From NCBI GenBank assembly GCA_964356665.1, contig CAYHIM010000001.1:1-31265 (forward strand): 31,265 bases of DNA. The letters are read 5' to 3'. Source of the stretch: an uncultured Gammaproteobacteria bacterium. Its GTDB lineage: Bacteria; Patescibacteriota; Patescibacteriia; Patescibacteriales; XYC2-FULL-47-12. Position numbers and translations under genes: made by a program. How positions within the stretch are numbered: position 1 is the first letter of the stretch; every line of letters starts with the position of its first letter. The notes under the pieces were generated by a model. The model saw only the letters and a program-made list of their open reading frames with translations. It had not been told where the DNA came from and made no database searches. Positions 108-30,573 of this stretch are shown one piece after another.

Positions 108-505
108 GGGGGTGTTAGGAATCGATGGCATGATCATTTTATCACTACGCAGGCCGAGCCGTGCCGTTTTAATCTCGTAAAACTACTAAGCGGCAAACAT
201 AAGTGTCAAAAACTTATTCAGCAAAGTTAGGTTGGCTTTCGCCAATTTAGCTTTTGCTCCTGCTCTGGCTTAAATTTAAGCAAGAGCCATCCGACCAGTA
301 ACGCCTACTAGCTGTACTCGGGTGTTATTTAGTAGGTTAGATTTGTCCCGCTTGTATTCATGGATAAATTGAAACAAAAGAATACTAGCTTAGGCAATTT
401 TTGTTTCTGTTTTTATTGCCTAAGTGAAACTTTAGCAGAAACTACGCCTGTACACGCAGGATAACTTGCTTGCCAGACAGGGGTTCAATTCCCCTCATCT
501 CCACC
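108..505 (+). ncRNA. ssrA: tmRNA (one-piece)
   Basis: 5' GGGGGTG pairs with 3' CATCTCC including G3:U70. T-arm AGGGG-TTCAATT-CCCCT. The end is ACC. An internal tag frame 205-273 follows ATAAGT and reads VKNLFSKVRLAFANLAFAPALA*, ending in ALA-stop. Confidence 0.92.
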
Positions 506-624
506 GAGATTAAAATTAAAAACAAGTTTGCCAAATAGAAAAAGATGGCAGGGATTTCCTCCCGAGGCGGACCCCGCACGCAAGCGCAAGCGCGCAGTGG
601 CGGGGCAATTCCCCTCATCTCCAC
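486..624 (+). repeat. 19-bp direct repeat of the tmRNA 3' end flanking a GC-rich palindromic cassette
   Basis: CAATTCCCCTCATCTCCAC at 486-504 and 606-624. Between them, CCCCGC (572-577) pairs with GCGGGG (600-605). Confidence 0.9.
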
Positions 625-4277: not shown

Positions 4278-4359
4278 GCCGATGTGGTGAAATTGGCAAA
4301 CACGCACGGTTCAGAGCCGTGTGCCGCAAGGCTTGTGGGTTCAAATCCCACCATCGGCA
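4278..4359 (+). tRNA. tRNA-Leu(CAG)
   Basis: Acceptor GCCGATG/CATCGGC, anticodon arm CACGG-TTCAGAG-CCGTG, long variable arm, T-arm GTGGG-TTCAAAT-CCCAC. CCA is not encoded. Confidence 0.95.
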
Positions 4360-8891: not shown

Positions 8892-8964
8892 GGGCTGTTA
8901 GCTTAGCTGGTAGAGCGCCGCGTTTGCAACGCGGAGGTCGGGAGTTCGAATCTCCCACAGTCCA
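8892..8964 (+). tRNA. tRNA-Ala(UGC)
   Basis: Acceptor GGGCTGT/ACAGTCC with G3:U70, anticodon arm CCGCG-TTTGCAA-CGCGG, T-arm GGGAG-TTCGAAT-CTCCC. The gene copy ends ACA, not ACCA. Confidence 0.96.
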
Positions 8965-21063: not shown

Positions 21064-21156
21064 AAAATAAAAAACACTTTGCTTAACTAAGCAAACCTTG
21101 CTCTCCCTAATGTCCAAATTAAGGAAAGCGATTAATTGCTTAGCCGAGCAAAGTGT
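21064..21156 (-). terminator. Long hairpin plus U-tract overlapping the end of the 134-aa ORF (putative attenuator 2)
   Basis: Outer stem 21156-21136 / 21094-21074 (20/21 paired, 2 G-U). Inner stem 21129-21118 / 21111-21100 (12/12, 2 G-U). Followed by UUUUUAUUUU. Confidence 0.8.
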
Positions 21157-21536
21157 CGGCGGTATATTTTAGGCAAACTTTCAAGCAAAACATCGTGCGG
21201 ATGCAGGCGGCGGTAATAGCTATTAACCCCTTGTTCGCCTAAACGGATGGTGGTAAATAAAAACAGATTAATAGTGTCGTCTGCAACTTGCCGCCATCTG
21301 AACCAAATCAGCGCTAATAAAATTGCCACTATACCGCTTACTAAAAAGTTGGCTACTACCTTAGTCATCGTAGTAATATGCGTCAAAGCAGATAAAGCTT
21401 CGTTACCGCACTCCAAACCGACAGAACACCCTAAATGAATGCTCTGCTGGCTGCAGCTGCTCCAAGCCAAAGGAATCGCCACTAAAGCGAGGATGATACT
21501 AATCGCTATCACTATTTGTAACCGGTGCGGCAACAT
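21132..21536 (-). CDS. Two-TM Cys/His protein with a PKIY motif near the C-terminus (putative leader ORF 2)
   Basis: Hydrophobic N-terminus, C28/H34/C37/C43/H53, second TM, YYRR and PKIY (aa 122-125). Confidence 0.7.
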   Translation of the reverse strand: MLPHRLQIVIAISIILALVAIPLAWSSCSQQSIHLGCSVGLECGNEALSALTHITTMTKVVANFLVSGIVAILLALIWFRWRQVADDTINLFLFTTIRLGEQGVNSYYRRLHPHDVLLESLPKIYRRHFARLSN

Positions 21537-26266: not shown

Positions 26267-26292
26267 AATTGAATACTTAATATTTTAATGCC

Positions 26293-26379
26293 AAATACAA
26301 AACGCCCAAACACCATTGCTAAATAGTAAAATTTGCCTCTGAAGAAAGAGGAGTCTATTTAGCGATAATATTTAGGCGT
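26293..26379 (-). terminator. 25-bp hairpin plus U-tract overlapping the stop of the 132-aa ORF (putative attenuator 1)
   Basis: 26379-26355 pairs with 26326-26302 (24/25, 4 G-U). Inner CCUCU/AGAGG. Followed by UUUGUAUUU. Confidence 0.8.
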
Positions 26380-26770
26380 AAATTTTCGGGTGCAAAATGC
26401 CCTTGGCAAAAAGAGTATTAAAATAATTATGTATCTTTTCTAACCTGCTTTTTCTTTTGTAATAGTAATACCAAACAATCAGCCGCGCCGCTATTGTCTT
26501 TATCAGCGCTTTAAAACTAAAACTTACTGCTAAAGCGGCGATTACTATCAGCGCCAATAATTGCCCGGGCAGAGCGGAAAAAATTTGTTTCCAAAAACTA
26601 ATGTGATTAACCACTCCCATGGGGCAAAGAGTAGCCATCCCGCTATTAAATTGGCAAGGCGAGGGGGCGCCGGAACTAAAACTATTCATCCCTAACTGCA
26701 CGCCGAAACTGGCCATCATAATAAAGATGGCTAAAAGAATAATGATGTTTTGGCGCAGTATAAATTTCAT
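26372..26770 (-). CDS. Two-TM Cys/His protein ending GILHPKIYA (putative leader ORF 1)
   Basis: Hydrophobic N-terminus, C39/C49-P-M/H56, second TM, YYYYKRK and PKIY (aa 128-131). Confidence 0.78.
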   Translation of the reverse strand: MKFILRQNIIILLAIFIMMASFGVQLGMNSFSSGAPSPCQFNSGMATLCPMGVVNHISFWKQIFSALPGQLLALIVIAALAVSFSFKALIKTIAARLIVWYYYYKRKSRLEKIHNYFNTLFAKGILHPKIYA

Positions 26771-26804: not shown

Positions 26805-26833
26805 ATACTAACATAAAAAAATAAAAAAAGCAA
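26805..26833 (-). promoter_or_regulatory. Sigma70-type promoter for the copper cluster
   Basis: Minus strand TTGCTT (26833-26828), 17 nt, then TGn-TAGTAT (26810-26805). Confidence 0.55.
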
Positions 26834-27633: not shown

Positions 27634-30573
27634 CTATTCCGGAATGTTATTAAGCACGCTGTCGCTGACGGGAATAAATCTCCCGCCTAAGGCATTATAT
27701 TCAACACTATCAATCCAACGTTTATAAAGCGCATTGCCTAAATCTTCAATAACGTAAATCCTGTCCCCAGAGCCTTTGAGCGGCTGATTAAGCATAAAAT
27801 CAAACAAAGCGTTATTGCCGATATCAACCCCGAGCATCATTTGCCTGACTTTACCTTCCGCGCTCTGCTGCCAATTTCTAATAATAATGTCTTGGCCGGC
27901 CAAAAAGTAAGCCTCGTAAACGCAGGCGCTGCCGGTTTTTATATAACCGCCGGCTTGTGTTTGTTCATCAAAATTTAAAGCTCCGCCGCTCTGATACGGG
28001 CTAGCCATCTTTAAATTAGCGGCCGGGCAGCGGTTTGAATCCTCCGGCACGTCTTCATAAAAAACAACGCGGATAACATTATAATTATCAGCGGCAGTGT
28101 TGTCTAAAGCCGTAAGTAAATTAGCAGAAGGGCAAAGCGGGGTTCTAGTATTAATGCCAGCTGTCCCCCAAAAATCAGTGGAGCGGCTACAGCTTCTGCC
28201 TGCCGTACCGATATAGTCGCCGCCCACGCTCCGCAAATAATTATAGTAACTATTAATATAATTTAAATAATCCTGGCCGCTCCAAGCAACTGCTTCTACA
28301 AAACCGGAGTTTCGGCTTTGATAGTGCCCGCCGAGGTTATAGGGTCGCCCCTGCCATTCTAAGTAAGGGCGGTTGCCGTGGCGCCAACTGCTTGAATTTT
28401 GTTCGTCAATTTGAAAATATTGCTCGCGAGTTGGAAAATACATATCGGCGTAAGGCGCGCCGCTTTCGTATTGATAATATCCGTTAGCCGCAAAATTAAT
28501 CGGGCTAGTTGGATTATTAAATTCAATTAGATGTTTAAAATATCTTTGCCAAATTTCCGGACTATATGCTTGCTGCCCGCCGCCTAATTCGCCGTAAGTA
28601 TTATCCGCTATCCCCATCAGCCAAAGGGGGTGAGTACCGACGCTGACGTAACTCGTGAGCACTATTACTTTTTCACTCTCACTGTCCCCTCGGTTATAAT
28701 AGCGAAAGTGCCCAAACCCCATCAACGCACTGGGTGCCGAATGATAATTGCCTTGTCTGGTAATAGTGCCAAGCTCCCCGCTGAAAACCAAATCTTGTTT
28801 ATTAACAATCGCACCGCCATCGTTAAAAATAGCGTAACTAGCGTCAGCCAAATTTAAATAATTATCCAAATTAATCCTAATGCTGCCTTGAGGTTGCGCC
28901 ATCACTTCTATCGGCTGAAATCCGGACAGCCGCTCGGTGCTGTAATTGCTCTTCGCCATATTAACAATTTCTGCGGCAGTGAGATTATAGCCGCGCTCGG
29001 CTAACCATCGTTCGTCTTCGGGGCTTAAGCCGCTGATTTTTATTCTATCTAAATCATCCCAGTCGTAGCCGCTAGTTGCCAGTTGAGCAATGTCTTGCCG
29101 ACCATAACCGTAAGCCGCAAACCAGCCAGCGTCATAAGGGGTATATTTACTTTTAACAATAATATGCAATCCGTAAGCATACCGGCCGGGAGCAGGCGGC
29201 TCGTCTATTGCCTGGCGCTCGCTCGCCGCAATTGCTTTATATTGCGGCACTAACTGCCAAACGCCGCCTTCGGCTTTGCGCCAAAGTTCAAGGTGGCTCG
29301 CGCGGCTTTGCGCCCAGGGATCCATGTCCCAAGAGACTACAACTTGGCTGCCGTCTGTTGTGGTTTGGACAGAAAATCCCGAGAGCAACGGCAAGAGCGG
29401 ATTGTAAATACAAATCCCTTGCCCGTTATTAATGTAAGCGCAACGAGCGATGCCAGCCGCGCAATCATTATCGTTACGGCAACTGGCCGCGCATTGCTGG
29501 CAAGTTCCATTAGGCAGACACCCGTTAACTGAAGGGTACGGGCCGCAGTCAAGCGCGCAGCCGCTCTGGCAGGATAAGGCAGGAGATGGACAGGCCTGTG
29601 TGTTGCAGTTGACAATCATCCGCGCCGGACCAAGGCAATATTTGCCGCCGCCGCTGGGCAGAGGATTATCGCACTGCCGCGTTTTGATGGCAATCCCGCC
29701 GCCGCAGGTTTGCGAACAGGCGCCGGCAATCTGCCAGCCGCTCCAGCCGCCGTCAACGGGCGAGGGAAAATCAAATAATGACAGCGGCTGTGACACCGCC
29801 GCCGCTGCCGCTTTCCAAACATTCACTATTCTAGCAATAATTGATGATGATTGTGCGACTGCCACTGAAACGGGCGCTGCCGCGGCAGCGTCTAATTCGG
29901 TTCCGTCGCCGCTAATGTCTTCTTCTGCCGCCGGCGCGATAGTTTCCACCGCCACCTGGTCAAATTTAATTAAACCCATAAAAAAAGATTTGACCACGTA
30001 ACGCGCCCCGATAAAAACAGCGGCAATAATAACGGCGCCAATTGCTCCGGTAATAAAAAAATTTCTCACTAAAGAAAACTTTAATAATTTCATTAAAACA
30101 AACCCGGCAGCGAGCAAAATAACAATTAATAAAATCGCGGATAAAATATTAGCTAACCAGCTTAAGGCTGTCTGAAAAATGCCGGCGGTAAATTCACTCG
30201 TACCGAAAAAAATAAAAATTGCGCCGGTGGTGATTTTTTTTATCCAATCCGTAATTAGGCCAAGCGGGTCATGCCAATTAAAACCGGCTGTTTTACCGCC
30301 GATAACTATTATCCCAGACCATAATTTAGCCGGCGCCTGACTAAAATAGTCGCCGGCTTGCTTAAAAAATACTAAAACCGCGTTAATTGCTTGAGCGGTT
30401 TGAATGTCATTGCCCGTAAAATCCAAACCATATTGTTTTTGTCCGGCCGCGGGCGCCGGCTGTTCTTCGCGAGTCACCTCTTCCGCCAGCGGCAAATCAA
30501 GCGCTTGCGCGAACAGCGGCGCGCCTAGCGCTAAACTAACAATGGTTACCGACAATATAATAATGTTGCGCAT
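27634..30573 (-). CDS. Large exported/membrane protein with a thrombospondin type-1 repeat, a 10-Cys module and an FN3-like segment
   Basis: Signal peptide, TM pair, DGGWSGW..ACSQTCGGG...RQCDNP.P.GGGKYC.G.....CNTQAC, and VVVSW..D....ELWRK...W. Confidence 0.85.
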   Translation of the reverse strand: MRNIIILSVTIVSLALGAPLFAQALDLPLAEEVTREEQPAPAAGQKQYGLDFTGNDIQTAQAINAVLVFFKQAGDYFSQAPAKLWSGIIVIGGKTAGFNWHDPLGLITDWIKKITTGAIFIFFGTSEFTAGIFQTALSWLANILSAILLIVILLAAGFVLMKLLKFSLVRNFFITGAIGAVIIAAVFIGARYVVKSFFMGLIKFDQVAVETIAPAAEEDISGDGTELDAAAAAPVSVAVAQSSSIIARIVNVWKAAAAAVSQPLSLFDFPSPVDGGWSGWQIAGACSQTCGGGIAIKTRQCDNPLPSGGGKYCLGPARMIVNCNTQACPSPALSCQSGCALDCGPYPSVNGCLPNGTCQQCAASCRNDNDCAAGIARCAYINNGQGICIYNPLLPLLSGFSVQTTTDGSQVVVSWDMDPWAQSRASHLELWRKAEGGVWQLVPQYKAIAASERQAIDEPPAPGRYAYGLHIIVKSKYTPYDAGWFAAYGYGRQDIAQLATSGYDWDDLDRIKISGLSPEDERWLAERGYNLTAAEIVNMAKSNYSTERLSGFQPIEVMAQPQGSIRINLDNYLNLADASYAIFNDGGAIVNKQDLVFSGELGTITRQGNYHSAPSALMGFGHFRYYNRGDSESEKVIVLTSYVSVGTHPLWLMGIADNTYGELGGGQQAYSPEIWQRYFKHLIEFNNPTSPINFAANGYYQYESGAPYADMYFPTREQYFQIDEQNSSSWRHGNRPYLEWQGRPYNLGGHYQSRNSGFVEAVAWSGQDYLNYINSYYNYLRSVGGDYIGTAGRSCSRSTDFWGTAGINTRTPLCPSANLLTALDNTAADNYNVIRVVFYEDVPEDSNRCPAANLKMASPYQSGGALNFDEQTQAGGYIKTGSACVYEAYFLAGQDIIIRNWQQSAEGKVRQMMLGVDIGNNALFDFMLNQPLKGSGDRIYVIEDLGNALYKRWIDSVEYNALGGRFIPVSDSVLNNIPE

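Follow-up and report, generated by a model that had tools for sequence, protein, structure and literature searches.

We analysed a 31,265-nucleotide (nt) stretch of DNA, contig CAYHIM010000001.1 of a patescibacterial genome (hereafter the window), in which a long hairpin, H1, lies at the end of a small membrane-protein gene and ahead of a set of copper genes. All genes from 31250 down to about 15600 are on the minus strand, in the order DsbA-like thioredoxin, promoter-like site, an open reading frame (ORF) of 132 amino acids (aa) whose product defines what we call the PKIY family, H1, HMA-DsbD_2-cupredoxin, CopZ-like and CopA; beyond CopA follow a SHOCT-domain protein, a 134-aa PKIY paralog, a second hairpin (H2) and a DUF1573 gene (Table 1). 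The HMA-DsbD_2-cupredoxin ATG is found 35 nt beyond the H1 stem and is not preceded by a Shine-Dalgarno sequence. An earlier note on this DNA had placed the hairpin before all the copper genes, and this position was confirmed.

Table 1. Features around hairpins H1 and H2, in window coordinates; (-), minus strand.
Feature	Position	Strand	Remarks
Sigma-70-like promoter, TTGCTT-17-TAGTAT with TGn before the -10	26805..26833	(-)	Consensus match only; 5' of the 132-aa gene
132-aa two-helix membrane protein (PKIY family)	26372..26770	(-)	Cys39, Cys49, Met51, His56 in exported loop
Codons of C-terminal motif F121-A-K-G-I-L-H-P-K-I-Y131 and terminal Ala132	26375..26410	(-)	Family logo
Stop codon TAA	26372..26374	(-)	Paired within H1 stem base
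Hairpin H1	26302..26379	(-)	5' arm 26355-26379, inner mini-hairpin 26336-26351, 3' arm 26302-26326
U-rich tail UUUGUAUUU	26293..26301	(-)	Directly 3' of the H1 stem, read from sequence
HMA-DsbD_2-cupredoxin membrane protein, 612 aa	24428..26266	(-)	Pfam HMA, DsbD_2, Cupredoxin_1
CopZ-like HMA chaperone, 67 aa	24220..24423	(-)	Weak Pfam HMA match (20.6 bits, under cut-off); 4 nt after the HMA-DsbD_2-cupredoxin gene
CopA-type P1B ATPase, 800 aa	21807..24209	(-)	Pfam E1-E2_ATPase, Hydrolase, HMA; about 10 nt after the CopZ-like gene
Second PKIY-family paralog, 134 aa, ending ...LPKIYRRHFARLSN	21132..21536	(-)	Hidden Markov model match E 7e-27 and alignment
Hairpin H2	21074..21156	(-)	5' arm is the paralog's last seven codons; stop in internal loop; tail UUUUUUAU; DUF1573 gene next

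Both the sequence and its folding reproduced H1 as it had been described. The minus-strand 5' arm ACGCCUAAAUAUUAUCGCUAAAUAG (26379-26355) pairs with CUAUUUAGCAAUGGUGUUUGGGCGU (26326-26302) through 15 base pairs (bp), one C.A mismatch and 9 bp, i.e. 24 of 25 positions including four U-G wobbles, and a repeat search of the window recovered the same arms. These are 28 nt apart, and the interior carries the mini-hairpin CCUCU/AGAGG. A26379 of the Tyr codon (26378-26380) is the first base of the stem, which also takes in the Ala codon (26375-26377) and the stop codon. With its 24-bp stem, a CGCC/GGCG clamp at the base and then the tail UUUGUAUUU, H1 has the stem and U tract of an intrinsic terminator, and it ranks among the ten strongest terminator-like candidates in a genome-wide survey. 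The wobble pairs had been said to work only on the transcribed strand. Indeed, the minimum free energy (MFE) of positions 26270-26400 (131 nt) is -38.8 kcal/mol on the minus strand (z -6.1, with none of 200 shuffles as good), against -30.5 kcal/mol (z -3.2) on the plus strand. Taken together, these data show that H1 is an RNA-level, terminator-type structure, located inside a co-directional unit and directly before the copper genes.

This strand asymmetry bears on the idea that the inverted repeat acts as DNA, either as the operator of a metal-responsive repressor or as the remnant of a mobile element. A long inverted repeat before copper genes would suit such a role, and the genome holds, far from the cop genes, a weak match to the BlaI/CopY family (Penicillinase_R, 25.4 bits, C33:4164-4319 (+)), its sole candidate copper-type regulator; the genome, which is 92% complete, yielded no CsoR, MerR-type or ArsR-type domain. 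However, the four U-G pairs become C.A mismatches on the other strand, and in 16 of 20 hairpins of the family it is the sense strand that folds more stably (Wilcoxon p 9e-4). On account of this asymmetry and of arms that are 28 nt apart and not conserved between lineages, a DNA palindrome or operator was rejected. A repeat or mobile element was likewise ruled out, as the 111-nt H1 region is present in a single copy in the 920-kb, 120-contig genome. We thus consider any function of the repeat as DNA extremely improbable.

Candidates acting as RNA were also considered. Rfam searches of the window at gathering thresholds matched only a tmRNA (138.6 bits, 108-506 (+)) and two tRNA genes (4278-4359 (+) and 8892-8964 (+)), with no family at H1, and a riboswitch or protein-binding RNA was ruled out because no loop or stem sequence is kept across lineages. 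When the upstream 150 nt were folded with the 5' arm, no stable alternative (antiterminator) pairing was obtained, which excludes a classical terminator/antiterminator switch. The H1 stem is much longer than the typical terminators of this genome, and a near-perfect stem of 24 bp is long enough for a double-strand-specific RNase. H1 might hence act in mRNA processing or stability, for instance as a cleavage site or by protecting a 3' end, and so give the parts of one transcript before and after it separate stabilities. By contrast, the base stems of relatives at the same position comprise only 6-10 bp, too short for double-strand cleavage, a U tract follows in nearly all cases, and the presence of the stop codon inside the stem would be unexplained, making this role highly unlikely in our opinion.

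The ORF that ends in H1 had been taken for a leader peptide, which it is not: it encodes a conserved membrane protein of a large family with invariant Cys, Cys and His residues. Homologs 55-75% identical are present in four relatives of family f1, all of which keep the order 132-aa gene, hairpin, HMA gene, even where the gene farther upstream differs. A hidden Markov model (HMM) of the PKIY family matches 36 of 401 genomes of the class, 16 of 401 genomes across the phylum and, among 1.84 billion protein representatives, 1193 clusters at E <= 0.001; the family has so far been seen in the candidate phyla radiation (CPR)/Patescibacteria. In the best 151 of the 1193, Cys39 and Cys49 are each conserved at 100%, His56 at 98%, Met51 at 85% and Trp60 at 84%, defining a putative metal site with the spacing C-x9-10-C-x-M-x4-H, not CXXC. 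The proteins are small, 145 of the best 150 hits being no longer than 150 aa (range 106-197). Searches of Pfam and NCBIfam returned no family for the 132-aa protein, nor did Pfam at E up to 10 for 12 members, DUF2946 (PF11162) included; by language-model features the nearest named family is DUF2946 (0.84), which serves as a lead only. An AlphaFold2 model predicts helices at residues 2-30, 53-66 and 69-122, forming a helical hairpin in which the Cys loop is disordered and of low confidence and the tail lacks structure.

This tail carries a conserved C-terminal motif. In the 143 of the 151 best representatives where the motif could be located, the consensus reads F-S-x-G-I-L-(H/N)-P-K-(I/L)-(Y/F), i.e. 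an 11-residue FSxGILHPKIY (F in 130, S in 113, G in 143, I in 133, L in 131, P in 126, K in 119, and Y in 113 or F in 27). PKIY, to which the earlier note had tied the hairpin, is thus only a part of the conserved element. Beyond the motif Tyr or Phe, 54 of the 143 proteins have no further residue, 51 have one (Ala in 36), and 34 have four to seven that are not conserved. Between the end of the second hydrophobic helix and the motif Tyr lie 34-44 residues (median 40), and His56 is separated from Pro128 by 73 +/- 3 residues (range 64-79).

Where the stop codon lies relative to the hairpin proved to be a property of the family. The H1 structure is kept by four distinct hairpins within f1, in which three pairs are compensated by changes on both sides and nine show a compatible change on one side only. 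No f1 relative departs from TAC GCC TAA or from its partner UUGGGCGU, whereas the adjacent His, Pro, Lys and Ile/Leu codons vary synonymously, and the tail reads UUUU(U)(G/A)UAUUU. In many lineages across the class, the last codon or the stop marks the beginning of a hairpin with a U tract behind it, and the stems are wholly different, such as gccTAAtagc...gctattagg+TTTTTT, cgccTAAtttaag...aaattaggcg+TTTT and cgcaTAAattc...tttatgcg+TTTTTTT; the sole stem sequence shared between lineages is GCN-UAA paired with UUA-GGN. In members ending in Y/F/D-Ala-stop, the stem begins in the Ala codon in all but one. In members with 3-9 unconserved extra residues, the extension is encoded by the 5' arm and the stop is still at or in the stem. 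The link proposed between PKIY, stop and stem therefore holds at H1, but in the C-terminally extended relatives the hairpin follows the stop and not the PKIY codons. That the geometry is conserved while the stem sequence is replaced fits the ribosome as the antagonist of the hairpin, and argues against a ligand- or protein-binding site. Exact-pattern scans of metagenome and genome collections returned mostly chance matches, the only true relatives being Falkowbacteria-labelled contigs that duplicate the four distinct hairpins. The contig of one homolog ended at the family gene, and the protein tree is too poorly resolved to tell a single from a multiple origin of the stop-in-stem layout.

To compare these loci with the rest of the genomes, one detector (best MFE helix ending at a T-rich tract, energy <= -8 kcal/mol, compact shape) was applied to family and background alike. 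The stem starts within -6 to +3 nt of the first stop base in 16 of 24 family loci (13 of 20 when near-identical relatives are collapsed), as opposed to 2 of 190 background terminators, namely 1 of 140 in this whole genome and 1 of 50 in 20-kb stretches of 20 other family-carrying genomes. The difference between 16/24 and 2/190 corresponds to a Fisher p of about 4e-14, a count in which the relatives are not independent, although the affected lineages are more than 1 substitution per site apart and share no stem sequence. The stop-in-stem layout is thus specific to the PKIY family relative to this background. The median start of background terminators is +26.5 nt past the stop, and of those with starts from -6 onwards only 15% fall at or within +10. 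As a rule, then, terminators are kept at a distance from stop codons in these genomes, an avoidance of short distances which suggests that ribosomes interfere with terminators in these organisms.

The PKIY-family gene heads a copper-gene unit, with a median upstream gap of 79 nt and strong promoter-like sites, and the next gene is an HMA-DsbD_2 homolog in 20 of 38 loci and a DsbA-like gene in 7 of 38. The promoter predicted in the earlier note was recovered as a consensus match, and an equivalent promoter-like site precedes the homologous gene in each relative (TTGACC-17-TATCAT in L011, TTGCTG-17-TAGAAT in L012) despite different upstream genes. At stop-in-stem loci, the ATG of the HMA gene lies 17-36 nt beyond the stem. 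This distance appears to leave no room for a separate promoter and leader, so that read-through would be the economical source of HMA mRNA. A consensus scan before the HMA gene found a sole promoter site, whose -10 overlaps the ATG, in bacteria whose promoters are poorly defined.

Several neighbouring features of these loci are worth recording. Strong sigma-70-like promoters with a -10 ending 6-10 nt before the ATG are seen at loci L120, L116, L117, L127/L130, L128, L132, L133 and L011; this short distance suggests, from the sequence, that many PKIY-family genes may be carried by leaderless mRNAs. In a metagenomic relative (L104:1091-1712 (+)), a nucleotidyltransferase/HepT-like toxin-antitoxin pair precedes the family gene in place of the DsbA-like gene.

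Could H1 simply terminate the mRNA of the 132-aa gene? According to this main rival explanation, H1 is an ordinary constitutive terminator, its leak keeps the copper proteins at a fixed, low level relative to the small one, and its overlap with the stop codon results from genome compaction. H1 has all the features of a terminator, and canonical terminators are used elsewhere in the genome. Compaction, however, accounts poorly for an overlap found at about 1% in the same compact genomes versus about 65% in the PKIY family, kept while the stem sequences are wholly replaced, and for unconserved C-terminal residues being tolerated so that the stop stays in the stem. Nor does a constitutive terminator agree with a downstream ATG that appears to leave no promoter room, or with the background's avoidance of short stop-to-stem distances and the ribosome interference that it suggests. 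We regard this explanation as rather unlikely.

We propose instead that H1 is a ribosome-gated intercistronic attenuator, a reading that, taken as a whole, we give an even chance of being right. The promoter at 26805-26833 would drive the 132-aa gene, and the HMA-DsbD_2-cupredoxin, CopZ-like and CopA genes would be transcribed only by an RNA polymerase that gets past H1 and its U tract. Because the G-C clamp is made of the Tyr, Ala and stop codons, a ribosome at the end of the ORF would keep the terminator open and the polymerase would read through; with the ribosome gone or lagging, H1 would form and transcription would end. The claim that a ribosome at the stop covers the stem base agrees with the geometry: if +9 to +15 nt are protected, the bottom 15 bp of H1 are blocked, and the remaining helix does not abut the U tract. 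The stop and last codons do form the base of the stem; from this geometry and from experiments in Escherichia coli we infer that H1 terminates transcription and allows read-through. In E. coli, shifting the stop codon's position from 28 to 5 bp before tR2 brings termination down from about 90% to <10%, and termination returns when translation is uncoupled (PMC4824070). We confirm the initial observation and support in part its reading as an attenuator: the terminator-type structure and the enrichment of the stop in the stem stand, but a trp/his-type leader-peptide attenuator does not, since the upstream ORF encodes a conserved 132-aa membrane protein and there is no alternative pairing.

The E. 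coli rph-pyrE operon provides a precedent, in which pyrE expression is set by where the stop of the upstream gene lies with respect to the attenuator, and a full-length gene serves as the leader (PMC2784333). As is proposed for the PKIY loci, rph-pyrE and pyrBI have an intergenic intrinsic terminator that is blocked by the ribosome finishing the upstream ORF; they differ by UTP-dependent polymerase pausing, by a stop located beside the hairpin and not in the stem base, and by the absence of nascent-chain sensing. H1 could thus be a generic coupling gate, devoid of metal sensing, that enforces polarity in a lineage without Rho, as in rph-pyrE; the copper genes would then be transcribed only if translation of the first gene keeps close to the polymerase. 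The geometric evidence applies equally to such a gate, and a search of 121 genomes of the order (87 of high quality) detected no RNA-binding domain of Rho. A generic gate nevertheless leaves unexplained why the layout is tied to one protein family, and why the exported Cys/Cys/His site and the tail at the stop are invariant in this family; moreover, H1 has no evident U-rich pause signal like those of pyrBI and pyrE. We hold it to be distinctly unlikely.

These conserved features of the protein suggest that the ribosome-gated attenuator might be set by its own nascent chain. Two leaders of the DUF2946 family offer models. CruR (Bp2923) of Bordetella pertussis has an export signal, a CXXC motif and an RAPP motif three residues from its end; ribosome arrest at RAPP blocks Rho termination before the next gene, and copper relieves the arrest (PMC9426467), which was shown in vitro (PMC12992588). 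In CutF of Rhodobacter capsulatus, occupation of the CXXXC by periplasmic copper leads to stalling at a C-terminal PPP, and disulfide formation and translocon pulling were proposed to release the stall (PMC9973294; bioRxiv 10.1101/2025.02.05.636593). By analogy with CruR and CutF, the dwell time at the stop would most likely be set by the nascent PKIY protein itself, the exported Cys39/Cys49/Met51/His56 loop reporting copper or thiol status. As the second helix ends about 40 residues before the C-terminus, it would be in the course of insertion when the ribosome reaches the stop, and the FSxGILHPKIY tail would sit in the exit tunnel at that moment. Copper would lengthen ribosome occupancy, and the detoxification genes would be switched on. 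In this Rho-less lineage, the intrinsic terminator would take the place of CruR's Rho site or of the stem by which CutF's system shields a Shine-Dalgarno sequence. A dwell time prolonged by the nascent chain according to the copper or thiol status of its loop is possible but, considered alone, seems to us less probable than not by a fair measure.

With CruR and CutF, the PKIY proteins share a common logic: small size, an export helix, invariant exported Cys/His residues, an invariant tail at the stop, the first place in a copper unit and a structured spacer. Such leaders are shorter than 150 aa, begin with a signal peptide or a Nin-Cout helix and come first in a copper operon; the 132-aa protein likewise has a predicted N-terminal helix (AlphaFold2 helix 2-30) and its gene stands ahead of the copper genes. 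CruR resembles them further in its length (about 145 aa), its N-terminal export signal, its conserved Cys motif and C-terminal motif near the stop, and in that ribosome occupancy at its end decides transcription into the next gene. It differs by its DUF2946 match, CXXC, RAPP, the use of Rho, a 162-nt intergenic region and a copper response that turns an uptake operon off, whereas the PKIY family has no DUF2946 match, the C-x9-10-C-x-M-x4-H spacing, the FSxGILHPKIY tail, a second membrane helix, a stop inside a predicted intrinsic terminator, detoxification genes downstream and no Rho detected in the lineage. CutF is likewise a nascent exported sensor whose stalled ribosome melts a stem-loop just downstream, allowing expression of a copper-detoxifying gene. 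Its authors' model invokes disulfide formation as the releasing force, and a DsbA-like gene adjoins the PKIY gene. By contrast, the CutF stem-loop shields the cutO Shine-Dalgarno sequence, which makes the control translational, and CutF depends on PPP and EF-P and has a cleaved signal peptide; the PKIY hairpin, with a U tract behind it, ends 35 nt ahead of the ATG, which would make the control transcriptional. TnaC of E. coli, as summarised in PMC9973294, also stalls at the stop codon itself and the stalled ribosome prevents termination before the structural genes, but this cytoplasmic peptide has only 24 aa, responds to free tryptophan in the tunnel and acts via Rho. PP, RAPP and PPP are absent from the last 15 residues of the PKIY tail consensus, which has a single Pro. 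Given this, the missing DUF2946 match and the second membrane helix, we file the family as working like CruR and CutF and not as a member of their class. By this analogy, H1 most likely represents copper control of the CruR/CutF kind in a new form.

Several points weigh against this reading. With one proline and neither PP nor RAPP in the C-terminal motif, stalling is purely what we infer, and the His56-Pro128 spacing, which varies by about +/-3, is looser than the +/-1-2 given for CruR. Good conservation within f1 extends over the whole protein, which may therefore be stable and functional, with a tail that binds a partner. As H1 is 78 nt long, the polymerase would have to cover about 85 nt before the ribosome leaves the stop. 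If transcription in this organism runs far ahead of the ribosomes ('runaway' transcription; Johnson et al. 2020, in the summary of PMC7858274), the overlap of stop and stem would be without effect, as a constitutive terminator would have it. Likewise in favour of the latter, the terminator lies +12 to +25 nt past the stop, in some cases before HMA genes, in members that end exactly at Y/F and in most of those from the phylum's other classes. This conventional spacing indicates that an intergenic terminator is widespread and that stop-in-stem is its lineage-restricted extreme. Finally, the sequencing runs listed for the stretch are of groundwater DNA only, with no RNA run.

We tentatively suggest, as a broader proposal that we rate as plausible but doubtful, that the PKIY family is a second, sequence-unrelated class of copper/thiol-sensing nascent membrane regulators, with FSxGILHPKIY as a new arrest motif at or next to the stop and a stop-embedded intrinsic terminator as the main copper switch of bacteria without Rho and the usual copper regulators. 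The first descriptions of a nascent exported protein sensing copper date only from 2022-2025 and concern two DUF2946 proteins of proteobacteria; two outputs are known so far: Rho-dependent termination and a stem-loop shielding a ribosome-binding site. The CruR and CutF papers mention no CPR members and no intrinsic terminator as output, and a literature search for such a case found none. If the proposal is true, an intrinsic terminator clamped by a stop codon would be a third output, the tail would be a candidate arrest motif without polyproline, and the switch would explain how ultra-small bacteria without Rho (and, in this genome, without CsoR-, CueR- and ArsR-type regulators) could control their only copper pump. 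The comparative signal is measurable, the stop-to-stem distance being about 0 where the median of the genome is about +26, and the proposal supplies a function to test for a family of more than 1000 unnamed protein clusters.

The second paralog and H2 repeat the arrangement within the same window. H2 reaches -40.2 kcal/mol, making it the second strongest terminator-like hairpin in the genome survey, and it is kept in genus g1; the paralog is kept in two genomes of the same genus. In L107 and L013, a paralog and hairpin are likewise paired with a downstream gene, of 163-164 aa. A different arrangement is seen in three KIY/KIF-stop members, L017 (about 1840-1920, +), L019 (-) and L124, in which an outer A/U-rich stem pairs the last codons and the stop with bases 3' of an inner terminator. 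These bases are directly before the AUG of the next gene in L017 and L019; in L124 no downstream ORF was found. The outer stem may represent a CutF-like layout or a chance pairing in AT-rich DNA. Farther upstream in the window, before the DsbA-like gene, 27634-30573 (-) encodes a protein of 979 aa in which Pfam recognises a thrombospondin type-1 repeat (TSP_1, E 2e-6).

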